The notes: generated by a model not told the origin, from the sequence alone. 64,000 nt of DNA from an uncultured Acidobacteriaceae bacterium (GCA_963767605.1 CAVYEP010000014.1:106696-170695); one strand, 5' to 3'; numbered from the stretch's first letter, positions 2,334 to 18,212 are shown. Program-made: numbers and translations.

Positions 2334-5182
2334 CTACTGCAGCTTCGCGTATTCGGCTTTGGCTTCGTGCAGCAGCGGGAGGTCGGGGTCGGCGTCTTTC
2401 CAGGCGGCGAGGAAATTCTGATACGCGATGCGGGCCTTGGGGATGTCGCCCTGCTTCTGGTACAGCCGGCCCAGTTCCAGTTGCGCGGCCACCACTAAGG
2501 TGTCGGGGCCATGCGGTTTTCATATCGAGGATCTTCTGGAGATCCTGCTGCGCTTCGGAGAAGCGTCCGGCCTGCAAGTAGGCCATGCCCCGGACGAAGA
2601 GAACGCCGGTGCTGGCGCGGGCGTAGAGGGCGGCGGTGTTTTCGAGGTCAATGGCCTTGGCGGGGTCGGCTTTGGCGGGATTGGCGGGGAATAGATACGC
2701 GATGGCGCGAATGTTGGGAACGGCAACGTTTTGCGCGATCGTGTCGTTCGGGCGGGTGCGCTGGATTTCGTCGGCGATACTGAGCGCTTTCTGTCCCTGG
2801 CCGATGAGCGCAAAGGCCACGGCGGCATTCCATTGCACGTCTAAAGTTTTGGAGGATCCGAGAGCCGCATTGGCTTCGCTGGCAGCTTCGGCTTTTGTTT
2901 CCAACAAAAGCCTCGAAGCCGGCCAACTCGGATTCCACTTTGGCTCGGCCTTGCAGGTGCACGCGATCGAAGGCATCTCCAGCTCTGCGTGCGAATTCGC
3001 GGGCTTGGCGAACCTGGCCGCGCGTCAGCGCCAGTCCGCCGCGGAACCCGATAACGGCCAACTCTCCATCGGGCGTCCCGGAGGCGCTTGCAGTTCCTTC
3101 TCCATGTCGGCGTCTTTGCCTTCGGCCCAGTCCAGCGAGGCCAGCTCCACATGGAAGCCCGCAGGCGATGCCTTGTGCTGGAGTGCGGCGTTGAGGCTGG
3201 CGCGCGCTTCCTCGATCCGGTTCAGTCCGGCGTACGCTCGAGCGGCATTCTCATAGCCGCTGACCATGTCGGGATCGAGCTCGACGGCGCGCTTCGCGTT
3301 CTCCAGCGCGTTGTCGAATTGTCCGAGCTGGTTATAGATCGCCGCCAGATTGTTGAAGGGGATGGGATCCCGCGGGTAGGTCTGGCGATAGAGTTCGTAG
3401 GCGGTAATGCCTTTGTCGAGTTGGCCGCTGTCGGCGTAGTAGTGCGACATGATGTAGAGCTTCTCGCGCTCGCTGGCACGGTCGCGAAGCTCAAAGGCCT
3501 TCTGGCGGTTTTGCTCCGACAGTTCGGTCTGCCCCAGGTTGCTGTAGACCGTGCCGAGGCGGGCATAGGCCATGGCGAAATTGGGATCGATGCTCGATGG
3601 CGTGCTGGTAGTCGGGAACCGCCGCCAGTTCGTCGCCCATGTTGTGCTTGGCGTCGCCCAGGCTCAACGCCTTCAGCGCGTCGAGCGATGAAGTGGTGGC
3701 CTGGGAAAGGGACATGTCGTATTTCTGCACCATGGCGAGCGACTCGCCGAGTTGCCCGCGCAGCTTGCTGGCGGCGCCGTGCAGCGCATTCAGCACATCT
3801 TCTTTGCGTTCGGCCTGCGCCTGCTGGCGTCCGAGCGAATCGCCGGAAGAAACATTGGTCGCTTCCAGAGTGATGACGTACTGGCCGCCGACGCTATCGA
3901 TGCTGCCGTTCAGCATGGCCTTGATGCCATCGCGCTGGCAGATTTCGCGGCCGACGTCGCTGGTGATGCGGTCGCCGGGGCTGCGGCCCATGAACTGCAA
4001 TGTCTGGCGGATTTTCTGTTCGGGGAAAACGTTCAGATACGGGGATTGGCCCAGATCGACGGCCAGCGCTTTCTTGAGCGTGCCATCGAAGACGGGGTCG
4101 GCCGTGGTGTTTACGAAATCGGCAATCAGGATCGAATCTTTTTCGGTAAGCGCGTGGCCGCGCTTGAGAAACACAAAGCCGATGCCGGCGGCGACCAGGG
4201 CGACGATCAGAGACGGAATCAGCCAGCCCGGCAGCTTGCGGCTTAGCGCGGGAGTTCTGCGCAGCGACGAACCGGACGAAGGCGCGGCCAGCATCGTGCC
4301 CGATTCGGAGTCGCGTTTGAGCCGCTTCAAGTCGGAGCGCACGTCGGCGGCGCTCTGGTAGCGCAGGTCGCGGTCCTTTTCGAGCAGCTTGTTCAGGATC
4401 ACTTCAAACTGCGGAGGCAAGTCGGGGTTCAGGCGAAGCGGCGGCGCCGGAGGGCGATTCAGAATGGCGTCGAAAATAACGGCGGACGTGTCTCCGCGGA
4501 AAGGCAGCGCACCGGTGGCCATCTCATAGAGCACGGCGCCAAACGAGAACAGGTCCGTGCGGGCATCGAGATCCTTGCCGCGCGCCTGCTCCGGAGACAT
4601 GTAGGCCACGGTGCCGACGGTCGATCCCGGGCTGGTCAGGAAGGGTTCGTCCACGGTCGCCGCGGAGCCGATGGTGGCGGCGGACAGAACGGAAGGCTTG
4701 GCGGTGCGCTTGGCCAATCCGAAATCGAGAATCTTGGCCTGGTTGCGGCTGGTCACGAAAATGTTGGCCGGCTTGATGTCGCGGTGGATGATTCCCTTGG
4801 CATGGGCGGCGTCGAGAGCGTCGGCGATCTGCGTGCCGAGATTGAGCAATTGCTCCAGTTCCATGGGCTGACCGTGGATTCGGTTCTTGAGGGTTTCGCC
4901 TTCCAGCAACTCCATGGCGATGAAGTGGCGCCCGCTGTCTTCGCCAACCTCGTAGATGGTGCAGATATTCGGGTGGTTCAGGGCGGAGGCGGCACGAGCT
5001 TCGCGCTGAAAACGGTCGAGCGCGAGCGGATCTTTTTCCGTCTCGGGAGGCAGGAATTTGAGCGCGACATGGCGGCCCAGGTTGAGGTCCTCGGCTTCGT
5101 AGACCACGCCCATCCCGCCGCCACCCAACTGCGAGAGGACGCGGTAGTGCGAGAAGGTCTGGCCGATCATTCCGGGAAACAC
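2334..5182 (-). pseudogene. Ser/Thr protein kinase with TM segment and C-terminal TPR repeats, reading frame broken 4 times
   Basis: ORFs 3491..5182, 3025..3573, 2648..3061 and 2317..2976, plus a last frame ending at TAG 2334..2336, join into one protein. Kinase motifs: [43 protein letters not shown] units follow, ending ...HEAKAEYAKLQ. Frame changes near 3587, 3085, 2905 and in the T4 run 2517..2520. Confidence 0.85.
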
Positions 5183-5541
5183 TCCTGGGAGAGAGAGTTA
5201 TTCATGTTAGGCCCGCAGCTTCTGGCAAGTCAAACATCTGAGCTCGTATGGTTATACGATGCAGCGGGTGGGGAAGTTCAGGGTCGCCGTGGCGGTGCTT
5301 GACCCTGTATTTTCTTTGGCTTAAGGTCTGTTTCTCCGCGCTCGGACGGGTGAAGCAGTAACCACAAGGTCACCTTCTTCCCGTTACGGAAGTTTGCTCT
5401 CCGAATGCCCGAATGCTTTCCTGCCTGTCCGGTGCCTGCTATCAATAAGTGTTCCCTCATTTTCCCCTGGGAACTGTAGTCCCCGCTTCCCCGGGGAGGA
5501 GTTATTCAGAAGTGAAACTTCGCCCGCAATCGTGGAGGGAA

Positions 5542-8294
5542 ATGAGCGCGGCGCCTCGTTTCTTTGTCGCCGTGGTCGTGCTCTGTGGGACGACCGTGCT
5601 GACCTATGCGGTCTTGCACGGCAGGAGTGAGAATCCGCTCAAATTTCTCTGTTATCTGGTGATTGCGCTGGCGGCCTCGCGGCTCAAGGTGAATCTGCCC
5701 GGCATTAGCCGGGACGATGTCGGTGAATTTTCTGTTCCTGCTGCTGGGCGTGCTGGAACTGAGCTTGTCGGAAGCCATGGCGCTGGGCTGCGCCGCGGTC
5801 GTGGTGCAGTGCATGGGCGATCGTCCGATCCCGATTCAGGTCGCCTTCAACGTCTGCTCGACCGCCCTGGCCATCGCGGTCACGTTCGTCGTTTATCACT
5901 ATTCCTTGCGGCTTTATCCGATGGGGAATCCCACTACCTTGTTGTTTCTGGCGACGTGCGTTTACTTCGTGGCCAACACGCTTCCGGTGGCCTCCGTCAT
6001 CTCGCTGACCGAGCGCCGGTCGCTGCGAAAGATCTGGTCGGACTGCTACTTCTGGAGCTTCCCCTACTACCTGGTGGGCGCGGGCGTGGCCGGCATGATG
6101 AGCTGGCTGCACGGATTCACCGACTGGCAGACGTCGTTGCTGACGCTTCCGGTCGTGTACCTCATCTACCGCTCCTACCGCCTTTACCTTGGCAAACTGG
6201 AAGACGAGAAGCGGCACGTGGAAGAGATGGCCGACTTGCACATGCGCACGATCGAGGCGCTGGCGCTGGCCATCGAGGCCAAGGATCAGACCACCCACGA
6301 CCACTTGCAGAGAGTTCGCGTTTACGCCGTCGAGGTGGCGAAGGAACTCAAGGTTGACCGGGAGGGAATGGAGGCCTTGCAGGCCGCAGCCTTGCTGCAT
6401 GACATCGGCAAGCTGGCGATTCCCGAGCACATCATCTCGAAACCGGGCCGCCTGACGCCGGAAGAATTCGAAAAAATGAAGATCCATCCGCTGGTGGGAG
6501 CGGAAATTCTGGAACGGGTGCGCTTTCCCTACCCGGTCGTGCCCATCGTGCGGGCGCATCACGAAAAGTTCGACGGGACAGGCTATCCGCTGGGCTTGCG
6601 CGGGAACCAGATTCCGATTGGCGCCCGCATTCTGGCGGCGGTGGATTTTCTGGACGCGCTGGCTTCGGACCGGCAATATCGGCGCGCGCTGCCCCTGCAT
6701 GAAGCCATGGCGCGGCTGTCGGAGGAATCGGGGAAAGCGTTCGATCCGCAAGTGGTCAGCGTGCTCGAACGAAGATACGTGGAACTGGAGCAGCTTGGTC
6801 CACGAGCGCACGGACAGCTTGAGCAAGCAGAAATCGTCCGACGGAAGTCAAAGACAAAGAGGCGGGAGCGGAGCCGGGAAGTCAAGCCGGCAGCCGGTTT
6901 CGAGGCGCAAGGACAGCGGCAAACGTCGGAGCGCAGCTTTCTGGGTTCGATCGCAGCGGCCCGCCAGGAAGCGCAGACTCTTTTCGAACTCAGTCAGGAT
7001 CTGGGAGCTTCGCTCAGTCTGGGAGAAACGCTCTCGGTATTTGCCGTGAAGCTGCGCCACGCGATGTCCTACGATGCGATTGCGATCTACGTGCGCCACG
7101 GCGATGAACTGGTGCCGGAATATGTGAACGGCGACAACTTCCGGCTGTTTGCTTCGCTGCGGATTCCCATCGGACAGGGGCTGTCGGGGTGGGTGGCGCA
7201 AAACCTGAAGCCGATTCTGAATGGCAATCCTTCCGTCGAACCCGGTTATCTGAACGATACTTCGAAGTACAGCACGCTGAATTCGGCGCTGGCCGTTCCG
7301 CTGGAGGGCTTGCAGGGCGTGGTCGGCGTGGTCGCGCTGTACCACGCGGAAAAGGATTTCTTTACCTCCGACCACCTGCGCATTCTGCTGGCGGTAAGTT
7401 CCAAGATGGCGCTCGCCATCGAGAACGCGATGAAGTACGAGCAGGCGGAGAATTCGGCGGTTACCGATTACCTCACCGGGCTTCCCAATGCGCGCTCGCT
7501 CTTCCTGCAACTCGACCGCGAACTGGCGCGCTGCAAACGCGACAACAAAACGCTGACCGTGATGGTCGCCGACATGGACGGCTTCAAGCAGATCAACGAC
7601 CGCTTCGGACACCTGGAAGGCAACCGCGTGCTGCGGCTGTTTGCGCACTCCCTGAAGGAAACCAGCCGCGAGTACGATTACGTCGCGCGCATGGGCGGCG
7701 ACGAATTCGTGGTCATCGCTCCTGGACTGACGCCCGAAGCCGCCGCGCGCAAAGCGGAACAGATGCGGGAACTGGCCCAACAGGCGGGCAAGGAAGTCTG
7801 CAACGAGGACATTCTATCGCTCAGCGTCGGCAAGTCCGTCTATCCCGAGGATGGGATGGATGCCGAAAAGATTCTCTCCGAAGCCGACAAGCGCATGTAT
7901 CTGCAAAAGCAGAGTCAGGCGACGCAGAAGAACCGCCGTCTGTATCCGCGGGTGCGCGGCCGGCTCACCACCGAAATTTCCGGAAACGGCCAGGAAGTGG
8001 CGATGCTGGGCATCGTCACCAACCTGAGCCTGGGCGGCTGCTATGTGGAAACCAGCGGCCTGCTGCTGCCCGGATCGCAATTGAAACTCACCTTCTCGCA
8101 CGAACATACCAACGTTTCCATTGCGAAGCGAGGTCGTGCGTATGGACATGGGCATTGGAGCGGCGCTCAAGTTTAGAGAAACGACGCACGAGGTGCGCGC
8201 CGCCTTGCAGCGCATCCTGGAGCAGTTGGCCAGCGCGGAAGCGGTGGTGGATCTGAAGCGCAGCCACAGCGCCGCTGCCGCAAGCAAACAATAA
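5542..8294 (+). pseudogene. membrane-anchored HD-GYP / GAF / GGDEF / PilZ multidomain c-di-GMP protein, frame broken twice
   Basis: ATG 5542 preceded by GGAGGG 5534..5539. Multi-TM N-terminus, then HHEKFDGTGYP (HD-GYP), a GAF-like block, RMGGDEF, and PilZ motifs RRLYPR...NLSLGG. Frame changes at ~5708 (removing 1 nt restores LPGITGTMSVNF) and ~8118. The last segment ends at TAA 8292..8294. Confidence 0.85.
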
Positions 8295-8308
8295 GAGACG
8301 ATCACGCA

Positions 8309-9427
8309 TCAGGCCGGAACATCGATCGGCCGAATCTGGATCAGCGGTGCGCTATTCGCCGATGCGCTGCGCGGCTTCGACAGCCCTTGCCGCAGCATGT
8401 TCGCCGTCGGCACGCCCGTTCGGTAAAACGACTTCTCGCAATCCGCGGTGGATGGTCCCCGCATACTTCCTTCCATATAGGCCAAGCCCGGGCAACGCGA
8501 GCAACTGGCGACATGCGAGCACGACGAGCAGACGGTCAGGTCTTTGGCCTGGATCGAGCGAACCTCTTTCATTTGCGGGGAAAGATTCCAGATATCCAAA
8601 AACTTCTGCTGGCGGATATTTCCCGTGGGGAGCGGGAACTGCACGCAGGGAAAGACATCGCCGTAGGGCGAAATGTAGCAGAAAGAATGGCCCGCGCTGC
8701 ACGAGTAACCCTCGAGGTCCTCCTTCGAGGGCGGCTTGGGAGGAGCGCAGAATTCTTCCTGGCTGCCGACCAGCGCGGGATTGTGGAAAATGTCCGGAAG
8801 CTCTTCTCCTGGGATGCGCAGCGACAGAACCGACATGTCGCCATCCATCATGGGCGTGATCGTGGGATCGAGCGTGTAATGCACGCCGAGTTCGGCGGCC
8901 AGCTTTTGCACTCCGGCATGATCGGCAGAATTCACGGTCATCAGCACGTTGGCGATGGTGACTCGCAGCCCCTGTTCGCGCAAGAAGCGAATGGACTTGA
9001 TGGTCCGCTCGAACGAGTGCGGCAGCTTGGTGATGGCATCGTGAACTTCGGGTCGATGCGAGTAGACGCTGATCTGGATGGTGTCCACGTCCAGTTCGCG
9101 AATTCTCTTCGCTTCCCTTTCGTGGATCATGACCGCGTTGGTCTTGATCTTGACGTTGAACATGAGACGCCGCGCGTGCTCGACAAGTTCAAAGAAGTCG
9201 CGGCGCATAAAGACCTCGCCGCCGCTGAAGGTGAGAAAGAAAACGCCCGCCTCGGCCAGTTGATCGAGGACGTCCTTGATTTCGGCGGTCGTCATCTCGC
9301 CGTGGTCGTCGTGGTCGAGATAACAATGCACGCAGCGCTCGTTGCAGCGATACGTGACGTCCATGTGCACGGCGAGGGGCACGCCCAGATCAAAGGCCTT
9401 CTGGCCCACCTCACTCATCAGGCTCAT
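8309..9427 (-). CDS. radical SAM enzyme with C-terminal SPASM-like Cys-rich domain (peptide-maturase type)
   Basis: Intact 372-aa ORF. CNERCVHC (CxxxCxxC) near the N-terminus. C-terminal CSAGHSFCYISPYGDVFPC...CSSCSHVASCSRCPG. Its start overlaps the upstream PqqD-like stop by 4 nt. Confidence 0.85.
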   Translation of the reverse strand: MSLMSEVGQKAFDLGVPLAVHMDVTYRCNERCVHCYLDHDDHGEMTTAEIKDVLDQLAEAGVFFLTFSGGEVFMRRDFFELVEHARRLMFNVKIKTNAVMIHEREAKRIRELDVDTIQISVYSHRPEVHDAITKLPHSFERTIKSIRFLREQGLRVTIANVLMTVNSADHAGVQKLAAELGVHYTLDPTITPMMDGDMSVLSLRIPGEELPDIFHNPALVGSQEEFCAPPKPPSKEDLEGYSCSAGHSFCYISPYGDVFPCVQFPLPTGNIRQQKFLDIWNLSPQMKEVRSIQAKDLTVCSSCSHVASCSRCPGLAYMEGSMRGPSTADCEKSFYRTGVPTANMLRQGLSKPRSASANSAPLIQIRPIDVPA

Positions 9428-9732
9428 CGGGGCTTCTCCGAGGCCAGCGGTTGATTGGAAACGAGAAGAATTCCGTGGCCGGAGAGTTCGGCGACAAATT
9501 GCTCGGCATCGGCCTGGGCCTGTTCGGGATCGACGTCAAATTGCTCGCAGACGCGGTCGCGGACAATTTCCCGCAGAGGAGTGCGGCCGTCGGCCGCTTG
9601 AAAGATGGCGGTGGCGACCTCGTTCAGCGTGAAGAAGGTCGAATCGGCCGAGTTCATGACCATCATTTCGCCGGCCAGCGCGCGGGCGGCAATGGCAGAA
9701 CTGCGCGCAATGTAGATGCAATTCTCAGACAT
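9424..9732 (-). CDS. PqqD-family protein (RiPP recognition element-like)
   Basis: About 100 aa from ATG 9732 (the ORF track extends to a GTG at 9771). ...STFFTLNEVATAIFQAADGRTPLREIVDRV...FVAELSGHGILL resembles PqqD/RRE proteins. Translationally coupled to the rSAM gene. Confidence 0.75.
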   Translation of the reverse strand: MSENCIYIARSSAIAARALAGEMMVMNSADSTFFTLNEVATAIFQAADGRTPLREIVRDRVCEQFDVDPEQAQADAEQFVAELSGHGILLVSNQPLASEKPR

Positions 9733-10608
9733 GCTCGAGGCACCCCGTGGAAGTTCCGGATTTCGTCCCACACCCTGCCATCAGGATAGAACGTCAGGCG
9801 GCGAATGGGAACCCTGGCGACGAAATCGCAAGCGGTGGCGAAGAGCTTTTCCACCAGGCCCTGGTCTTCGGCAAAGAAGAGAATATTGCGCATCAGCCGG
9901 CGGACCGCATCCGCGGAGGGCAATTCATCGACCCGGTTCTCCGGGCCCTGCTCCAAGAAAAACAGAGCCGCGACCGGGGCGGCGCAGTTCTCACCGGCCT
10001 TGGCCAGTTCTCCGGCGAAAGGAGTGCCGAACGCATGGTAGCCGTGGCCGCTCTGAGGGTCGTTGCTCGGACGGGCGTTGCTCGGGCGTACGTCGTTCGG
10101 GCGGGCGTCGTTCGGACGTACGTAGGAAATTTCGTCGGTCAGCAGGGTGATGTCGGCGGGCGCCAGACGCGTCATCGTGGTTTTGCCCGCGCCCGAAACG
10201 CCCGAAAACAGATACGCCCGGCCATCACAAATCGCGCTGGCGGCGTGCAGCAGGAATCCTCCGCGCTCGGCAAGAATCAGGCTGTGCACAATGCGCAGCA
10301 CCGAATCGAGGGAATACGGGTTGGCATTTTGCCGCACGCTGCCCCGTCCAGTGCGAGGGTCCCAGCGGGCGTGGAAGTCTCCGCGCTCGCAGGAGCCACT
10401 CGTCGCCTTCGCGACGGACCCGAACGTCGTCGTCGGAAGCCAGTCCCGTGCTGGTGAGATCAAACTCCAGCTCAAACTCGGGATGCGAAGAACTCAGGAA
10501 CCCGTCATAGCGCTGGCGCAGCAGATCGAGGAAGCCTTCGTCGCAGGTGGACAAGGCAATCGGAATTCCTCCGATCTCGACACACGCGACTTTTCGGGGC
10601 GCGGCCAT
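9663..10608 (-). pseudogene. HprK-related (HPr kinase-like) P-loop kinase, frame broken once, 3' end uncertain
   Basis: N-terminal part is in ORF 10225..10611, the rest in ORF 9663..10475, joined near 10390 (...EGDEWLL/ERGDFHARWD...). P-loop FSGVSGAGKTT. GGGAG lies 8 nt upstream of ATG 10608. The listed stop overlaps the PqqD-like gene by ~70 nt. Confidence 0.7.
10058..10121. repeat. 4 x 15-bp imperfect tandem repeat inside the HprK-like gene
   Basis: ggtcgttgctcggac / gggcgttgctcgggc / gtacgtcgttcgggc / gggcgtcgttcggac. On the coding strand this reads RPNDA RPNDV RPSNA RPSND. Confidence 0.9.
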
Positions 10609-10767
10609 CACAAGACTCCCGGCTCGGCGGAACCCAAATCCGCGGCGGACTCAGGGTTTCGAAATTCGTGCGCCGATGTTTCTGGCGGCCATGAAGCTTC
10701 AGAGCAAGGCGGCGTGCAAGGCCGCAATGACAGAGCAGCATCCCTACCGCGCGAGACCACTTCACGC

Positions 10768-11310
10768 TCAGCGTCCGCCGGCCACCAGCTTTCCCAGGAG
10801 TGCTTCGGGAGGATACGGAGGGTCGGCGCCAGGCATGGAATCGCCGCGAAGCAGGAAGCCGTCCGGCGCACAAGGAGCCACCAGGCGATGCAGAAAAAGC
10901 CGGCCGTCACGCCGCGCCAGCACGATCTCGCCGGGCCGGACATCTTCCAGCGGGCAGCCTTCGATCTCGACCACATCGCCCGGCCAAAGAGTGGGCAGCA
11001 TGCTTTCCCCGTGAACGCGCAGACGCAGACTACCACGTCCACGCAAAGCGTCCGCCACCAATGCTGAACCTTCCGCACTCCAGCGCAGGCGTGTCGTGCT
11101 TGGGGTGTCTTCCAGCATCAGGAAGTTTTTCTTGAGGAACGCGATGACATGTGCGTTGAGTGGCGGCGATTTTGCCGCAAGATAGGGCCTGGGTCTCGAA
11201 AACCCGCTCATAGCGGAATGCCGGCTTCTGGTAGAGCTTCTTTCCCTTACCCGCATTGCCCGTTGGTTGCGTTCTCGCGAGGGGCCCGATTGTCCGTCAT
11301 AGTTGGTCAA
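10768..11310 (-). CDS. S24/S26-family (LexA / signal-peptidase fold) serine peptidase
   Basis: Core ...LRVHGESMLPTLWPGDVVEIE...IVLARRDGRLFLHRLV...LLRGDSM... The first ~64 codons are Arg/Ser-rich and may be non-coding; alternative ATG at 11118. Confidence 0.65.
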   Translation of the reverse strand: MTNYDGQSGPSRERNQRAMRVRERSSTRSRHSAMSGFSRPRPYLAAKSPPLNAHVIAFLKKNFLMLEDTPSTTRLRWSAEGSALVADALRGRGSLRLRVHGESMLPTLWPGDVVEIEGCPLEDVRPGEIVLARRDGRLFLHRLVAPCAPDGFLLRGDSMPGADPPYPPEALLGKLVAGGR

Positions 11311-11433
11311 GCCAGTTGCTAATCAGCTGACTTATCCCCCCAGTTCTGACTAAGAGTGAAGGCAGTGTACTACACGCCTTTCCCCGGTGCCAACACGACC
11401 AGTCGGCAAACCGAGGACAGCGAATCAACATTC

Positions 11434-12232
11434 TCAATAAAATGAAAGAGTTCCGTTCTGCCGCGCTCGCCGCAAACTTAGCGACAGGCCGGCCAGCGCC
11501 AGTGGAAGCAGGACCACGCCAAACCCGGCCAGGACCGCCAGTGTGCGAGCCATCGCGATCATGGACTGCCCTTCGATCAGCGCCCGGCGCATTCCGTCGA
11601 TGGCGTAGGTGAGAGGAACGGCGCGCGCAAGAAGTTCGAGCGGGCGCGGCAAGCTCTGGATCGGGAACATGGTTCCGCTAAGAAACCAGAGTCCGGAGCC
11701 GAGCAGCCAGAGCACCGCCGAGCCTTTCTGGAACGCAACCTGAAGCGTGGCCGCGGCGATCCCCAGGGCCAGGGCGATGCCAGAGAAAGAACCAACACTG
11801 CCACGCACGAGAAGAAGTTGGCATGGATCGATGCCCGGAAAACCGCCACTCCCGCGAAAAGATAGACCAGCAGATTGACCAGGTTTCCGGCAAAGGCGGA
11901 AATGGAGCTGAGGATCACGAGCTCAGCCGGGGCGGTCGAGGTGGTCATCAGCACTTCCAATGTCCCTGTCTGTTGTGCTTCCTGCACCGCGCTCAGGAAG
12001 CTTGCGCGCTCATGACGAAGAAAGTGTAGATGCCGGTGCCGACCAGGAGGAAGGGAAAGTACTCGACGCCACCGGGGCGAAAACCGGGACCGATGGCGCG
12101 GGATAGAAAATAAAAAGCCGCCAACTCGGTGAATACTCCGACCAGGGTCACGACGAAACCGCTGCGGTGGCGGATGGCCGTCAGCAGATCGCGCCGCAGG
12201 ATGGCATGAAGCTTGTCGAGGGTCGAAGTCAT
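11434..12232 (-). pseudogene. ABC-2 type transporter permease, frame broken twice
   Basis: Hydrophobic fragments in ORF 11993..12259 (real start ATG 12232, MTSTLDKLHAILRRDLL), the middle of ORF 11577..12272, and ORF 11434..11808. Joins near 12005 and 11795. Confidence 0.7.
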
Positions 12233-12237
12233 AGAGG

Positions 12238-12335
12238 ATTTGTAATTTGTAATTTCCAATTTGTAATTGCAAGCATGGGCAATGTGAGCGACATATTCTG
12301 AAACAATTGCAAATTACGAATTACCAATTACAAAT
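12238..12335. repeat. word-periodic hairpin (TTTGTAA heptads) in the ABC ATPase-permease spacer
   Basis: Left arm 12238..12272: atttgtaatttgtaatttccaatttgtaattgcaa. Right arm 12307..12335: ttgcaaattacgaattaccaattacaaat. 34-nt loop. Confidence 0.85.
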
Positions 12336-12337
12336 TT

Positions 12338-13124
12338 TCAGCGTTTGAGCACGGCCTCATCGATCTCACCGGTCATGCGGAAGTAAAAAGACCGCAGAGC
12401 TTCGGCGCTTTCGCCGTCCCTCACCGGGCGGTCGGCGAGCAATTCGCCGCGATGCAGCAGGAGCAGGCGATCCGCAACGGCGGCCGCCTCCGCGAAATTG
12501 TGAGTGGCGAGCAGAACGGTGGTCTCTTGCCGTGCCAAGGCGCGGATCGTCGCCCAGAAGTGTGCCGTGGTGGCCGCGTCGAGGCTGCGCGTCGGTTCGT
12601 CGAGCAAGCAGAACGCTGGGGCGCTTGACCAGGGCGCGCGCGATCCCCAGCCGCTGGTACATGCCGCTGGAGAACTTCATGACCAGCGTGTCGGCCTGCT
12701 CTTCGAGGCCGGTATCGCGGAGAACTTCGTTGATTCTTTGCGCGCGCTCGCGGTGCGACACTTCGTCAAGCGCGGCAAAGAAATCAAGGTTCTCGCGAGC
12801 CGAGAGTCGAGGGAAGAATGAGCGCTCCGCTGCGACAGCGATGCCGACCTGCCGCCGCACTTCACCGGCGTTGCGCCGCGCATCGAAGCCGCCCACGCGC
12901 ACCGATCCGGCATCGGGCAAGCAGCATGGTCGAAATCAGCTTGAGGGCCGTGGTTTTTCCGCTGCCGTTCGGGCCGAGTAACACCAATACCTCCGCGCGC
13001 GCCGCCGAGAAAGAAACGTCTTTCAAGGCAAGGTTTCGCCGCCCCGCTCCCGTCCCAGCCAATTGAACAGAGCTGGACGATGGCGAAAGATCTTGCGAAC
13101 GGATTCGAAGACGACTCGGTCCAT
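12338..13124 (-). pseudogene. ABC transporter ATP-binding protein, frame broken three times
   Basis: ATG 13124 gives MDRVVFESVRKIFRHRPALFNWLGRERGGETL. This is followed by LKDVSF..LLGPNGSGKTT (Walker A), FSSGMYQRLGIARAL and LLLDEPT (Walker B). Joins near 13030, 12915 and 12608. Confidence 0.8.
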
Positions 13125-13254
13125 GAAAGCGGGACGACGAACCAGCGTGAACTAAACGTTCGAACGTGCCGAGGACTCTGTATTATAGTGGCGATTCGCA
13201 ATCCAATTGATTCCGGCTTGCAGTTGCTTGTCTATCCGTCGGGATCCGCTGTTC

Positions 13255-14456
13255 ATGACCGAAGGCTTGCCTTCGTCTCCTGCGTCAAGCACAGTGCCGC
13301 GGGGTGAAAACGAATTCGAGCTCTTGTGCGCGCTGACTGGCGTGGAGTTGGCTCCGGAGCGTGATCGAGCGCATTGCGAACTGGAATCTCTCAAGACTCG
13401 ACTGGAGCGAATTCCTTCGCCTGGCGGAGCACCATGGAGTTCTTCCGCTCGCGGCGCGCAATCTGATCGAACACGGTCGCGGGCTTCCACCCGAAATCGA
13501 GCGCTCTCTGCGATCTGCGTACGACGCGAACCTGCGGCGCAGCCTGTGGTTCACCGCCGAACTGGCGCGCATCATGCAGCACTTCGAGCGCAGGCAGTTG
13601 CGGGCAGTTCCGTACAAAGGGCCGGTGCTGGCGCAATCGGCTTACCGCGATGTGGGGCTGCGAAGTTTTTCGGATCTCGACTTCCTGATTTCTCCCGCGG
13701 ACTTCGAGACGGGCGAAGCAGGCTCTTGCTGAAATCGGATATCGCCCTTCCGCGGATTTCACTCCGGCCGTCGAGCGATTCTGGCTGCCGAAAGGCTACG
13801 AGCGCTCGTTTGACAGCGCAGCGGGACAGAACCTGGTCGAACTGCAGTGGGCGTTGCTGCCGCATTTCTATGCAGTGGATCTGCGCGTGGCGGATCTGCT
13901 GGCGCGCGCGGGCCGGACAGTTGTGGGCGGGTGCGAGGTGCCTTGCCTGTCTCCCGAAGATTCGCTGCTGGTGCTGTGCTTGCATGCCGCAAAGCATCTT
14001 TGGACGCGCCTGATCTGGCTGGCGGACATTGCGGAGACTTTGCAATCCCAATCCCGATCCCAGACCATCGACTACTCGCTGGTGTTCTCCCGAGCGCGCG
14101 CGCTGGGAATCGCTCGTATTCTCGGCGTGAGTTTCTGGCTGGCGAAGAACGTGCTTCGGACGGAGCTTCCCAGCCCGCGGAGGAAATGATTGCGGCCGAT
14201 CCTCGGGTGCCTGCTCTCGGCAGCGAATTTGCCGAGCGCCTGGCGCGCGGCGCGACCTATGATTTCGAATCCACGGAATACTTCCGACTGATCCTGAAAC
14301 TGCGCGAGCGGCGCGGCGACCGCTGGCGATATCTCTGGCGGCTGGTGTGGACGCCGGGCGCGGGAGATGTTGCGGCGGTGCAGATTGCCGGAAGCGCTTT
14401 TTCCTCTTTATCGAATCGTGCGCATTGGGCGGCTGCTGCGAAAGTCCCACTTGTAG
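13255..14456 (+). pseudogene. nucleotidyltransferase-family protein (PF14907-like, the type found beside HprK-like kinases), frame broken about 4 times
   Basis: Segments: MTEGLP...ELLCALTG; LDWSEFLRLAEHHGVLPLAARNL...VPYKGPVLAQSAYRDVGLRSFSDLDFLI; LSPEDSLLVLCLHAAKH; and the terminal ...LPEALFPLYRIVRIGRLLRKSHL, ending at TAG 14454..14456. Joins near 13370, 13712, 14172 and 14384. Confidence 0.65.
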
Positions 14457-14535
14457 AGACGGGGCTTGCCCCGTCTCCCGCCTGCGTGTTCGCGCTGCGA
14501 CCAGGGGAGACGCGGCAAGCCGCGTCTCTACAGGG
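14453..14535. repeat. inverted pair of GC-rich REP-like palindromes (GAGACG[CG]GG-CWWG-CC[CG]CGTCTC)
   Basis: Cores at 14456..14477 (gagacggggcttgccccgtctc) and 14507..14528 (gagacgcggcaagccgcgtctc). The pair overlaps the nucleotidyltransferase stop and lies between convergent genes. Confidence 0.9.
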
Positions 14536-14586
14536 ACGCGTTATTGCTAGTGCGTTTCCCCGTCGCCAGGCGCGACGTCTGGCGTG

Positions 14587-16783
14587 TCAACTTTCTTCTG
14601 CGCAACGGCCGTGTTCCCTGGCGCCGGCGCCGGCTGGAAATTCGCCGGGATCTTTGCCGGCCAGCGCGACGTTCATGAACTGCATCCAGATGGGCAGAGC
14701 GGCGCGGGCTCCGGTTTCTTTTTCGCCCAGCGATTTCTTTTCGTCGTAGCCGATCCACACGCCGCAAGTGAGCGACGGCGAAAAGCCCACGAACCAGGCG
14801 TCGGTGAAATCGTTGGTCGTGCCCGTCTTGCCCGCCAGCGGATACGGCATTTTGGCGGCGGCGACCGCGGTGCCGTGGAGCACCACTTCCCGCAGCATCG
14901 AGGTCATGATGCGCGCGGTGCGCGAGCTGACCGCGTCTTTAACGTCGGAGAAATCTTCTTCCAGAATGCGCCCTTCGTAGTCGGTCACTTTGGTGATGTA
15001 GCGCGGGGCGACGCGCACGCCGTCGTTGGGAAACACGCTGAAGGCCGAGGTCTGCTCGAGCGGCGTGATTTCCGCCGAGCCCAGCGCCACCGGAAGATAG
15101 GCGGGAATGTTTGCGGTGATGCCGAAGCGGTGCGCGTAGTCGATCACGGTCTTGATGCCGACGCGGTCGGCAAGCTTGAGCGCGGGAATGTTTCTGGACT
15201 GGGCGAGCGCGCGCCGCAGCGTGATCGTGCCCTCAAATTTGTCGTCGTAGTTGTGCGGCGAATAAGGGCCGGAGGCGGTTTGGAAAGTTACCGGCGCGTC
15301 GAGAATCGTGTCGTCGGGGCTGCCGCCCTGGTCGATCACCGCGGTATAGACATAGGGCTTGAACGACGACCCAACCTGGCGCAGCGCCTGCGTGGCGCGG
15401 TTGAACTTGGAGAGATTGAAGTCGCGGCCGCCGACCATGGCCTTGATTTCTCCGGTGGCGTTGTCGATGGCGACCAGCGCTCCTTCGGCGCCGGAATCCT
15501 GTTCCAGGCTGACGCGCGCTTTTCCGCCTGCATCCAGCGCGAGCACTTTGACGTAGACGATGTCGCCGGCATGGAGAATGTCGGGAGGCTTGAGCTTGCA
15601 GCTTCGTCCATGCGACGTCGGCCGGCGAGAGCGTGGCCTTGTGCTGCCCGAAGCGGACCTCCGCGGCGCCCGGCGAGACTTGCGTCACCAGCGCGTGCAT
15701 GTATCCGTTGACTTCGGGCTCTTCATCCCAATCGGGATCGACGTACTTGTCGAGCTTCTGCCCCTGGGCAATCACGTTCACGAGCTTGCCGTGCCAGCCG
15801 TGCCGGCGCTCGTAGGCGGCGAGGCCGTCGAGCAGCGCCTGGCGCGCCGATTTCTGCAGATCCATGTCGAGCGAGGTGTAAACGCGCAGCCCGCCTTCGT
15901 GCACCTGGTCGCTGCCATACTTCGCTTCCAGGTAGCGGCGGATTTCCTCGACATAGTGCGGAGCCAGCGAATTCGGATCTTTCTGCAGGTTGAGCGGGAT
16001 CGGCTTGCTCTTGGCGTCCGCCGCTTGGGCGGCGGTGATCTTGCCGTCCTCCAGCATGGCATTGAGCACGAGGTTGCGCCGCTTGACCGCGCGTTCCGGA
16101 TGGTTGATCGGCGAGTAATACTGCGGCGCCTTGGGAAGTCCCGCGAGCAGCGCGGCCTCTTCCAGTTTCAGTTGCTTGGCCGGTTTGCTGAAATAGTATT
16201 CCGAAGCGGCTTCAAAGCCGTAGGCGCCGTGGCCGAGAAAAATCTGGTTGGCGTAGAGCGTGAAGATCTGCGGCTTGGTGAAGCGGCGCTCGATCTGGAT
16301 GGCAAGCAGCGCCTCCTGCACCTTGCGATAAAACGAGCGGTCGGGAGAGAGAAACAGATTGCGGGCGAGCTGCATGGTGAGCGTGGAGGCTCCCTGCACT
16401 TTCCCGCCGGATTCGATATCGCGATACGCCGCGCCTGCGATGCGCCAGAGGTTGATGCCCGAGTGCCGGTAGAAATCCTTGTCTTCGATCGAGACCAGCG
16501 CATTGCGCAGAACTTCGGGATAGTCGTCATAGGTGGCGATGACGCGGCGCTGCAGCGCGAAGGTGCCGATGACTCGCCCTTGTCCGTCATAGAGTTCGGT
16601 GACGGAACTGGGACGGTAACGTTCGAGTTGCTCGACCTGGGGCAGGTCGGTCGAGTAGACCAGCAGCAGCCCGGCGGCCGCGCCCACCGCGGCGGCGAGC
16701 AGGACGAGCAATCCGAACAGGACGAGTCCCACCAACTTCCGTCCGCCAATTTTTATCGTTAGCAAGATGTTGGCAGGTTTCAA
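14587..16783 (-). pseudogene. mrcA: class A penicillin-binding protein (PBP1A: transglycosylase + transpeptidase), frame broken once
   Basis: GT51 motifs EDKDFYRHSGIN, GASTLTMQLARN and RKVQEALLA. Transpeptidase motifs SSFKP, SRN and KTGTT. Join near 15596 (...ADVAWTKLQ/LKPPDILHAGDIVYV...). The start codon (TTG 16783) is uncertain. Confidence 0.85.
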
Positions 16784-16810
16784 GGTTTCAAAGTTTCAAC
16801 GTTTCCATGG
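16773..16810. repeat. word-periodic repeat (AAGGTTTC octads), left half
   Basis: gcaggtttc aaggtttc aaagtttc aacgtttc. The complementary cctgaaactctgaaacctgc lies at 16960..16979. Confidence 0.75.
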
Positions 16811-16915
16811 TACGCAAAGGCATAGAAACTGTTTCACCGCCGAGACGCCGAGGACGCCGAGAAGAGCTGGTGCTTGCCAAGTCCTATAGGCAAGCAATGT
16901 CAAAGTCCTCTCCAC

Positions 16916-16955
16916 AAAAAAAATCGCCCGCCGAAGCGAGCGATTCGCAATTTTT
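16916..16955 (-). terminator. intrinsic (bidirectional-type) terminator downstream of the S41 peptidase-like gene
   Basis: A8 run 16916..16923, stem aatcgcccg/cgagcgatt (16922..16945), then T5 at 16951..16955. On the minus strand the hairpin is followed by U8. Confidence 0.75.
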
Positions 16956-16983
16956 AAATCCTGAAACTCTGAAACCTGCTTTC

Positions 16984-18212
16984 TTATCCCTTCGATTCCC
17001 GGTTCTTCAACACTTCCAGCGCTTTGTTCAGCTGGTCGTCCTCCTGGTTCTTCGGTTTCACTTCTTTCTTCTCGTTGGGAGCCGCCGTCTGGTCTTCGTC
17101 GGGTAATCCACCGTCGTCGTCCGCAGTGTCGGCGATCAGCACGTTGGGCGTGACGGCCGCATCCTGAATTGCTTTTCCGCTGGGCGAGTAATACTTCGCG
17201 ACCGAAAGAATCAGGGCGGAGTTGTCCTGCATCTCGATCAGTTTCTGCACCGAGCCGTCGCCGAAAGTCTTGTCGCCGACCACGTCGCCGCGAGCGTTTT
17301 CCAGGATCGCGGCGGCCACAATCTCCGCCGGTCCCGCCGTGCCACGATTCACCAGCACCGCCACGGGAAGCTTGGTGATGTCCTTGGCGGGATCGGCGTT
17401 AAACGCCTGGCGCGGATATTTCTGCCCCTGCAGATAGGTGATGGTGCCATGGTCGAGGAAAAGATTGGCGGTGGCAATGCCTTCCGACTTCGGCTCCACC
17501 GGCGGAGTTGCGCAGGTCAAGCACAAGCTTCTTCGCTCCCTGCTTCTGCAGATCGCGAATCTTGCTGGCGATCTCCTGCGACTTGCCTTCGGGGAACGCG
17601 TCCACCTGGATGTAGCCGACGTTATCGGCCAGCATCTTTTCGCTAACGGGAGGGATGGCGACCACGTCGCGCGTGATCACGATCTTCTGCGGTTCGGCTC
17701 GCCGCGGCCGGACCACCGCCACAGTTGATCGTAGATCCAACCTCGCCCGTCAGGAGGCTGTGAATCTCAGCCAGCGACATGTCGTGCGTGGTCTTGCCCT
17801 CGATCGACTCGATGATGTCGGAGTTCTCGACGCCGGCCTTGTCCGCCGGGCCGCCGGGAATCACCGCGACCACGGCCGCGTATCCGAAGCGCTTGGAGAC
17901 GGTGGCGCCGATATCCGCCTTGCCGTCGGTCTTCATCGTCTTGTAGCGCTTGTACTCAGCCGCCGACAGGTAGCTGGAATTGGCGTCGAGCGACTCCAGC
18001 AGTCCGTGCAGCGCGCCGTCGGTGACGCCGGCAATATTGGGCTCTTCGACGTATTCGAGGCGGATGCGCGACAGCACTTCGCTGTACACCGACAACTGGC
18101 GATACGCGCCTTCATTCGAAGAAGCGCGAACGTGGACGAAACCGCCCACGATGGTGAACAGCAGAATGGCCAGCGAACTGGCAAGGATGGTGACCTTCAA
18201 CTTCGTCGACAT
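16984..18212 (-). pseudogene. S41 (C-terminal processing peptidase, CtpA-like) homologue with PDZ domain; frame broken twice and catalytic residues apparently substituted
   Basis: ATG 18212 (MSTKLKV, TM anchor). PDZ-like ...VIPGGPADKAGVENSDIIESIEG. S41 core ...VAVLVNRGTAGPAEIV...VGDKTFGDGSVQ. Joins near 17725 and 17510. Confidence 0.75.

Follow-up and report, generated by a model that had tools for sequence, protein, structure and literature searches.

A predicted RiPP locus of Acidobacteriaceae that combines an LPP-type enzyme module with a radical SAM/SPASM maturase

Linear polyphosphorylated peptides (LPPs) are RiPPs (peptides made by the ribosome and modified after translation) of Bacillota, encoded by clusters such as the Paenibacillus alginolyticus cluster lppA-K-B-S-D-N (Popov et al., Nat Commun 2026; PMC13381572). 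The LPP core is composed of the SipW-like type I signal peptidase (SpI) LppS (TIGR02228), the RiPP recognition element (RRE) LppB, the HprK-like kinase LppK, the NTP_transf_5 protein LppN, and the MsbA-like exporter LppD; the member called a "putative NTP transferase" is NTP_transf_5 in the domain table (PMC13381572). The precursor leader reads YxxPxVLxHQxIxFETxxS, LppK places several phosphates on core Ser3, LppS cuts behind the FET Thr only when the peptide is presented by LppB, and LppN was inactive in the expression host used (PMC13381572). These clusters are patchy, horizontally transferred and described as restricted to Bacillota; radical SAM enzymes go unmentioned, and the proteins of "SSN cluster 3", from Acidobacteriota and other phyla, are listed without analysis (PMC13381572). 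Relatives of the LPP enzymes are encoded at positions 8309-14456 of a 64,000-nucleotide stretch of DNA from an uncultured Acidobacteriaceae bacterium (GCA_963767605.1, CAVYEP010000014.1:106696-170695; the whole stretch is called the window), where they stand beside a radical S-adenosylmethionine (rSAM) enzyme with a SPASM domain, and this locus is the subject here.

Phosphorylated RiPPs are rare, and we know of no report of a RiPP that is both rSAM-modified and phosphorylated. The SynChlorMet cassette (ScmC, TIGR04249; ScmD, TIGR04248; ScmE, TIGR04250; ScmF, TIGR04251), which includes two rSAM/SPASM proteins, is defined bioinformatically and uncharacterized. A literature search returned nothing relevant on RiPPs that combine an HPr kinase with radical SAM and PqqD, on SynChlorMet, or on rSAM RiPPs of Acidobacteria. 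Among the phosphorylated lasso peptides, the C-terminal Ser of pseudomycoidin is phosphorylated by an HprK kinase, and the hexose carried on the phosphate depends on the NTP-transferase PsmN (PMC6993621).

Judged from its genes, the locus is probably a RiPP cluster in which the LPP enzyme module is joined to a two-component rSAM/SPASM maturase, and it would make a leader-cleaved, rSAM-modified, Ser-phosphorylated and exported peptide. Widely conserved in soil Acidobacteria, the cluster most likely gives rise to a small exported peptide. Its features are as follows, with coordinates in the window and insertions or deletions (indels) where the frame is broken:

8309-9427, minus strand: rSAM/SPASM maturase, 372 amino acids, intact (PF04055 4e-26, PF13186 1e-11)
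9424-9732, minus strand: discrete PqqD-type RRE, 102 amino acids (PF05402 9.5e-16)
9725-10608, minus strand: P-loop kinase of the HprK/PEPCK superfamily, LppK homologue (one-base indels at ~10388 and ~9738)
10608-11118, minus strand: S24/S26 peptidase resembling signal peptidase I of endoplasmic reticulum (ER)/archaeal type, predicted leader peptidase (PF00717 2e-6; indels at ~10767-10782 and ~10683)
11118-11300, minus strand: precursor peptide gene of ~60 codons (indels at ~11274 and 11140-11146)
11301-11400, minus strand: promoter-like element with a predicted hairpin in the 5' untranslated region (alignment of 45 upstream regions)
11434-12259, minus strand: ABC-2 permease, DrrB-like (PF01061, PF12698; indels at ~11780 and ~12003)
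12338-13124, minus strand: ABC transporter ATPase, DrrA-like (PF00005; indels at ~12607, ~12920 and ~13031)
13125-13254, no strand: intergenic spacer of 130 bp from which the ABC ATPase and NTP_transf_5 genes diverge, read from the sequence
13255-14456, plus strand: PF14907 (NTP_transf_5) nucleotidyltransferase, accessory (indels at ~13364, ~13709, ~14173 and ~14382)

An earlier, sequence-only reading of the window had assigned seven gene families in this order, and both the families and the order are borne out by an open reading frame (ORF) listing and by scans of the window with profile hidden Markov models of Pfam and NCBIfam (PF04055, PF13186, PF05402, PF00717, PF14907). TIGR04352 and TIGR04355, which it had put forward alongside the matched PF04055, PF13186, PF05402 and PF14907, stay far below cutoff. 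The 4-nt overlap of the PqqD and rSAM genes that it had noted (ATGA, the PqqD stop over the rSAM start) and the 130-bp divergent spacer are likewise as described. The precursor stop overlaps the peptidase start and the peptidase stop overlaps the kinase start, each as TGATG, and the kinase and PqqD genes overlap too; since all four junctions overlap, the genes from precursor through peptidase, kinase and PqqD to rSAM appear to be translationally coupled. Intact orthologues complete the assignments, with TIGR01188 matched at 2.9e-58 by the ABC ATPase, a permease of 275 amino acids in the intact orthologous locus L003 (JAIQFO010000020.1, 47323-68438), and PF14907 matched at 1.7e-60 by the L003 nucleotidyltransferase against 3.7e-31 and 7.4e-20 on two fragments in the window.

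The precursor gene is the part of the locus that the sequence-only reading had missed, having seen no convincing candidate and having drawn the peptidase ORF at 10768-11310. That ORF is a composite, and its 5' 190 nt belong to a separate gene in another frame, the ~60-codon precursor at 11118-11300 on the minus strand, which travels with the cluster. In the window, this gene is spread over three frames by the indels near 11274 and 11140-11146 and lies inside the apparent 5' end of the peptidase; its repaired reading is MTDNRAPRETQPTGNAGKGKKLYQKPAFRYERVFETQALSCGKIAATQRTCHR?SSRKTS, of which the middle frame is read directly. In L003, the orthologue is an ORF of 60 codons, with the permease gene on one side and the peptidase gene on the other. 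The precursor motif was found in 65 loci as 66 copies, the kind of small conserved ORF whose presence with the set had been put forward as a test. The peptide falls into 367 database clusters, every one annotated "hypothetical", and matches neither a Pfam nor an NCBIfam family. Locus L007 carries two near-identical copies, at 5509-5682 and 8083-8256, ~2.6 kb apart.

The anatomy of the precursor is well established by these copies. The relatives follow the overall pattern ...KKxYQKPAFRxERVFET-x-AL[S/A]-CGK-x7-C-x4-K[T/S]S, in which a nearly invariant leader segment, Y-x-K-P-x-F-R-x-E-R-V-F-E-T-x-A-L-[S/A], is followed by a core of ~18-22 residues made of C-G-K, seven variable residues, C, four variable residues, K-[T/S]-S and the stop. 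The 63 sequences that fit the full-length pattern all agree (63/63) in Y, K, P, E, V, FET, L, C and K, and position +4 is Ser in 40 and Ala in 16. Nine residues lie between the two Cys in 59 of the 66 copies, the second Cys has seven more after it in 61, and all 66 end in Ser. Between these anchors the cores are hypervariable, 58 of the 66 being unique. Just upstream of the precursor ATG, a promoter-like TTGGCA-N17/18-TACACT and a hairpin, AAGCCAG...CTGGCTT, are kept in most of the 45 aligned loci, and the element at 11301-11400 is predicted to serve as promoter and 5' untranslated hairpin; an Rfam scan of 8000-14700, hairpin included, gave zero matches. In front of the precursor, a sigma-54 promoter was also weighed and discarded, its -12 element being a misfit.

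The rSAM protein contains CxxxCxxC and the full 7-Cys SPASM motif (CX14GX4C...CX2CX5CX3C...C), and no fused N-terminal RRE domain was found in it, the rSAM core running from ~residue 24. Among solved relatives, the sactisynthase SkfB (6efn, 5.5e-14) comes first, ahead of PqqE, CteB and SuiB. As in sacti- and ranthipeptides, an rSAM/SPASM enzyme is paired here with a Cys-containing precursor, and because of the two invariant Cys, their fixed ring spacing and the relationship to SkfB, the chemistry predicted for the rSAM enzyme is most likely the formation of Cys-derived thioether crosslinks of sacti or ranthi type. The PqqD protein has the lasso PqqD chaperones as its best NCBIfam matches, under cutoff, and by BLASTP is 23% identical to an LPP RRE (2e-6) and 27% identical to OLE53998.1 (7e-9).

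The kinase is, on sequence comparison, a true homologue of the characterized RiPP kinase LppK. Against an LppK sequence rebuilt from the alignment in Supplementary Fig. 23 of PMC13381572, it is 25% identical over 228 amino acids by BLASTP (1e-20), and hhalign gives 99.7% and an E of 8.5e-26 over the full length. The motifs LLHaa...GxSGAGKTT...L(T/S)DE...GTPFxGE are kept across 154 sequences, and the family comprises 12,430 representatives at E<=1e-3. No significant match was found for the kinase in the local Pfam scan; in NCBIfam, ScmC TIGR04249 is best (1e-10 to 1e-13), HprK_rel_A and HprK_rel_B are weak, and all remain under cutoff. Among 61 diverse members of the family, ScmC is matched in 58, HprK_rel_A in 53, HprK_rel_B in 51 and PEPCK in 31, with best E values of 4.6e-12 and 5.6e-11 for the HprK_rel_A and HprK_rel_B models. 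Profile searches of PDB sequences with the family reached only the level of the P-loop (PEPCK, 4e-4, together with a designed P-loop protein), HprK/P entries being absent from these matches; the placement in the superfamily therefore rests on NCBIfam transitivity and the LppK homology. A 15-nt tandem repeat at ~10040-10110 on the minus strand, between the DE motif and GTPF, encodes RPSN(D/A)-like pentapeptides (VRPNDARPNDVRPSNARPSNDP), whose copy number varies among close relatives. HprK-like proteins P0121-P0240 carry a precomputed Pfam label, PF27840, and a curated kinase family may already exist.

Homology to the LPP system extends to the peptidase, the RRE and the nucleotidyltransferase as well. 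The peptidase scores above cutoff with PF00717, and its best NCBIfam match is TIGR02228, the archaeal-type signal peptidase I (27.5 bits, cutoff 51.85). Its Ser (G-x-S-M-x-P), His (H-R) and Asp (G-D) are conserved in >=97% of 102 sequences; a Ser/His/Asp triad belongs to signal peptidases of the ER/archaeal type (S26B), as against a Ser/Lys dyad. By BLASTP, it is 30% identical to the LPP SpI WP_113022977 (9e-4) and 33% identical to OLE53994.1 (5e-9). An S24/S26 peptidase in the place of the lasso leader protease, as proposed in the sequence-only reading, has an experimental precedent in the RRE-dependent LppS (PMC13381572).

The set of genes is kept across genomes, a point that the sequence-only reading had put forward as a test. 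A scan of one genome per species turned up rSAM orthologues in at least 563 species, and co-conservation was counted in the window and the best 80 of at least 563 loci (n=81), these 80 belonging to metagenome-assembled genomes of Terriglobales, Acidobacteriaceae or other Acidobacteriota. The S24 peptidase and the HprK-like kinase were each present in 78 of the 81; PqqD followed with 77, the precursor with 67, the ABC genes with 64-67 and NTP_transf_5 with 56, an arrangement far beyond chance. In Terriglobia, the locus has a fixed chromosomal position, is vertically inherited and shows housekeeping-like conservation; because PBP1A and GGDEF flanks are shared, synteny by descent could explain part of the co-occurrence. 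Several variants depart from the common layout. The ABC genes are lacking and the precursor lies on the opposite strand in L045, L047 and L055, and L063 lacks the ABC genes too; all four keep NTP_transf_5 at 29-30% identity, confirmed by Pfam in the rearranged L045 (3e-58). Conversely, L009, L016, L031, L044 and L050 have the ABC genes, and NTP_transf_5 was not found in them.

More distant loci were fetched from metagenomes by the distant kinase alone, with a 3-sequence query and at 31-43% identity. An rSAM orthologue of ~50% identity follows downstream in 41 of the 50 with enough sequence, the precursor was found by tblastn in all 23 of the 23 loci long enough to hold it and the S24 peptidase in 18 of these 23, and the gene order is cyclically permuted to HprK-PqqD-rSAM-pep-S24. 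Their precursor, M.EDNKNSPPAPGEKKPYTKPSV.SEPIYETLALACGKLPGQGGVCNAAPRRS, repeats the C-x9-C-x7 spacing and likewise ends in Ser. On a contig of 31% G+C (L093), NTP_transf_5 (4e-57), kinase, PqqD, rSAM/SPASM, precursor (MSKKKSYEKPKLKSEKLFEATVLTCGKTSPTTPSCQAGLQIS) and S24 peptidase are again together. Since the variants, the permuted metagenome order and L093 go beyond shared synteny, the set is taken as a functional unit, of which the precursor, PqqD and rSAM trio is, by gene content, the core. Some metagenomic kinase relatives also sit with PqqD where there is no rSAM gene, which means that the pairing of RRE and kinase recurs with different partners; at L148, such a pair is accompanied by a GNAT-domain protein (Pfam) and a weak S24 tblastn match. 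As a separate observation, large proteins are inserted beside the precursor in L108 (10636-12891), L076 (6614-8302) and L045 (3741-7595); the L108 and L076 inserts have weak beta-propeller matches, and that of L045, of 1284 amino acids, has no Pfam match.

A pathway of the pyrroloquinoline quinone (PQQ) or mycofactocin type, leading to a redox cofactor or small molecule, would also use a discrete PqqD chaperone with an RRE-less rSAM/SPASM enzyme, as in PqqD/PqqE and MftB/MftC; in such a pathway, the pair would crosslink a small number of conserved residues, the peptidase would cut away the remainder, and the peptide backbone would be discarded. The full-length MftC match (4e-38), the 72-96% identity of the rSAM protein among Terriglobia, per-locus tblastn identities near those of PBP1A and the fixed, housekeeping-like position of the locus all fit this reading. 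It is nevertheless considered unlikely. The rSAM protein falls below every NCBIfam cutoff (MftC 131 bits vs 265, ScmE 101 vs 400, PqqE 103 vs 381), and the precursor ends in K[T/S]S, with no C-terminal GVY or E-x3-Y motif. Hypervariable residues between anchors of fixed spacing are typical of peptide natural products, the cluster has a dedicated ABC-2 exporter, and the set of kinase, NTP-transferase and SpI is otherwise known only from peptide products.

Alternatively, the locus could be an ordinary LPP-type cluster that makes a linear, polyphosphorylated, leader-cleaved peptide, the rSAM/SPASM enzyme being an unrelated neighbour, for instance in haem or cofactor maturation. All LPP core families are indeed found in the locus, in NCBIfam the N-terminal domain of the rSAM protein is matched most strongly by NirJ2 and AhbD, and its JGI name is "AdoMet-dependent heme synthase". 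This possibility is distinctly improbable, given that NirJ/AhbD reach 138-149 bits against cutoffs of 500 and that no other genes for haem d1 or alternative haem synthesis were found in the neighbourhood of L003. Moreover, the rSAM gene is joined to PqqD by the ATGA overlap and accompanies PqqD and the precursor in permuted orders and on the L093 contig, L080 is reduced to precursor, PqqD and rSAM, and the two invariant Cys of fixed spacing are not a feature of LPP cores.

A split lasso cluster is very unlikely; in that case the genes for the Asn-synthetase-like cyclase and the B2 protease would lie elsewhere, and a phosphorylated lasso peptide of the paeninodin or pseudomycoidin kind would be made. 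The leader does carry the lasso-type YxxPx[F/L], the PqqD protein is nearest to lasso chaperones in NCBIfam, and the pair of kinase and NTP-transferase with a C-terminal Ser is the signature of paeninodin and pseudomycoidin. Against this, the absence of the lasso cyclase and leader protease claimed from the sequence alone was upheld, with no Asn_synthase cyclase or Transglut_core3 B2 protease within +/-10 kb of L003 and no SGGxDS PP-loop motif in any frame of the 64-kb window. The core departs from that of a lasso peptide in having no conserved Asp/Glu, and none at positions 7-9 to close a macrolactam ring, and the LPP system shows that the module works without a cyclase.

The frame disruptions recorded in the sequence-only reading are real, affecting six of the eight cluster genes once the precursor is counted. 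Relative to L001 and L002, ~22 single-base indels lie in the coding sequence of 5000-17000, or ~1 per 500 bp across this region against close relatives; most are outside long homopolymers, and the rSAM gene has zero. The flanking genes are broken as well, the essential-looking PBP1A at ~15598 and ~14635 and the GGDEF/HD-GYP gene at 5710, 6792, 6837, 6875 and 8125, and both are intact in relatives, as is every cluster gene in close relatives from other assemblies. Because these flanks are hit at similar density and are intact in relatives, the disruptions are read as an artefact and not as decay of the locus, which suggests uncorrected assembly errors or poor sequence quality across the window. 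A decaying pseudogene cluster from which no product is made, for which the breaks in six of eight genes, precursor included, would speak, is hardly credible, and locus-specific pseudogenization was rejected on the equal damage to the flanking genes, the intact relatives and the catalytic motifs kept in 100-150 sequences.

Two further features of the window lie beside the cluster. The AT-rich spacer separating the ABC ATPase stop from the permease start (12238-12335) contains a 32-nt inverted repeat made up of AATTACA heptads, with arms at 12238-12269 and 12304-12335, 84% complementary around a 34-nt loop; AATTACAAAT, allowing <=1 mismatch, has 7 matches in this spacer versus 1.1 expected across the whole window. 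This motif occurs in relatives too, as "ITNYK" and "KLQITN" in ORF translations, and the repeat may fold into a hairpin in the mRNA or serve as an operator. A large signalling protein encoded at 5717-8300 on the plus strand, convergent with the rSAM gene and syntenic in 72 of 81 loci, shows HD-GYP-type, GGDEF-type and PilZ-like motifs on reading of its translation.

The steps of biosynthesis can be proposed from the genes, and from them we infer every chemical step, the phosphosite, the cleavage site and export. The ~60-residue precursor would be transcribed from its own conserved promoter, with the downstream genes from precursor to rSAM translationally coupled, and the PqqD protein would bind the leader motif YxKPxF...VFET. 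It would present the peptide to the RRE-less rSAM/SPASM enzyme, by which the core scaffold CGK-x7-C-x6-S would be modified, probably with Cys thioethers, and to the kinase, which would phosphorylate Ser, possibly several times, the invariant C-terminal Ser being the best candidate. Presented likewise to the Ser/His/Asp peptidase, the peptide would lose its leader, either behind FET, as the LPP case suggests, or behind AL[S/A]. Cleavage after A-L-[S/A] fits the -3/-1 small-residue rule. The NTP_transf_5 enzyme, where present, may decorate the phosphate, and the ABC-2 transporter would export the product, which would be both rSAM-modified and phosphorylated.

Several points weigh against this scheme. 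The product and the action of the rSAM enzyme are predictions from genes. MftC, NirJ/AhbD, WgkB, StsB, ScmE and PqqE score about alike on the rSAM protein, all far under their cutoffs, so that sequence similarity does not tell them apart, and the two invariant Cys could form a simple disulfide. The C-terminal phosphosite follows the lasso and not the LPP analogy, because the Ser3 phosphorylated in LPP (FETxxS) has no invariant counterpart here, the nearest Ser being that at +4 in 40 of 63. The exporter is a two-gene DrrA/DrrB-like ABC-2 system, unlike the MsbA-like LPP exporter with fused transmembrane and nucleotide-binding domains. The AlphaFold2 model of the kinase, built on a 30-sequence alignment of close relatives, was unusable (pLDDT 46.5, pTM 0.38). 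NTP_transf_5 is absent in about a quarter of the loci, PqqD was unmatched in L076 and L077, and L080 has neither kinase nor peptidase. About 11 of 78 Terriglobia loci (L005, L009, L011, L024, L028, L033, L037, L039, L050, L072 and L075) have no intact precursor in the region examined, from ABC-2 to S24, despite intact-looking enzymes with S24, kinase, PqqD and rSAM matches kept; L011 and L075 retain only a 3' remnant (...QCQFSHKTS), and in these 11 the precursor may be encoded elsewhere or lost.

A more specific proposal can be offered tentatively, and is somewhat doubtful as a whole. It holds that the locus defines a new RiPP class, in which a peptide of 18-22 residues is macrocyclized by the RRE-dependent rSAM/SPASM enzyme through its two invariant Cys, (poly)phosphorylated on the C-terminal Ser, in many species glycosylated on the phosphate, processed by the SpI-like peptidase and inherited vertically in hundreds of Terriglobia species. 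If this were true, vertical inheritance at a fixed site would favour a physiological role, whether as a signal, in the envelope or metal-related, over a sporadic antibiotic.

The LPP module is thus found outside Bacillota and joined to an rSAM enzyme, and it therefore looks like a portable cassette for tailoring and processing, able to serve a lasso cyclase, no cyclase, or an rSAM enzyme. A defined precursor family with a clear CGK-x7-C-x6-S scaffold and intact template loci are now in hand, from a lineage of very abundant and poorly cultured soil bacteria whose natural products are almost unknown. The analysis supports the sequence-only reading as essentially right, strengthened by the precursor and the LPP precedent, and the locus as a well-defined expression target, not a conceptual surprise.

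Compared with known systems, the locus is most like LPP. It contains a TIGR02228-type peptidase, a discrete RRE, an LppK-like kinase and NTP_transf_5, both systems lack a lasso cyclase, and the leaders have a common YxxP...FET architecture, with YxKPxF and VFET invariant here and FET two residues nearer to YxxP. Unlike LPP, which has no other maturase, it couples an rSAM/SPASM enzyme to the RRE. The core is short, with two invariant Cys at fixed spacing and the C-terminal Ser, whereas LPP cores are long, variable and Gly/Pro-rich; the hosts are Acidobacteriota (Terriglobia) and other non-Bacillota, and inheritance is vertical at a fixed chromosomal site where LPP clusters are patchy. Its peptidase and RRE are somewhat closer to the "SSN cluster 3" proteins (33%, 5e-9 and 27%, 7e-9) than to the LPP ones. 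The statement of the sequence-only reading that no characterized example was known no longer holds for the non-rSAM part, of which LPP is a characterized relative, and it stands for the whole set, which belongs to neither LPP nor SynChlorMet.

With the phospho-lasso peptides paeninodin and pseudomycoidin, the locus shares the HprK-family kinase, the NTP-transferase, the PqqD RRE, the YxxP leader, an ABC exporter and the C-terminal Ser, and it differs in having an rSAM/SPASM enzyme and an S26-type peptidase, with neither macrolactam cyclase nor B2 protease. With SynChlorMet, it shares the combination of rSAM/SPASM with PqqD-like and HprK/PEPCK-like P-loop proteins, ScmC being the best NCBIfam match of the kinase, and the cutoffs are missed widely (ScmC 40-48 bits vs 125, ScmD 24-26 vs 100, ScmE 101 vs 400); there is one rSAM gene here, plus the S26 peptidase, NTP_transf_5, the ABC-2 exporter and an identified precursor. 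The HPr-rel-A system (TIGR04352, TIGR04355 and PqqD_rel_X TIGR04353) is similar in joining an HprK-related P-loop protein to a PqqD chaperone; again the scores are below cutoff (HprK_rel_A 15-19 bits vs 200, HprK_rel_B 13-15 vs 200, PqqD_rel_X 23-26 vs 35), and a single kinase stands here in contrast to its A/B pair. PqqE/PqqD, MftC/MftB, SkfB and CteB resemble the maturase in their 7-Cys SPASM with a PqqD-fold partner and in a substrate that contains Cys; the RRE, fused in SkfB and CteB, is separate here, and a tailoring set of kinase, NTP-transferase and SpI is not known for PqqE/MftC or for the sacti- and ranthipeptide classes. The locus lies outside every curated family, and it fits best as a variant of the LPP/phospho-lasso tailoring system that includes an rSAM enzyme.

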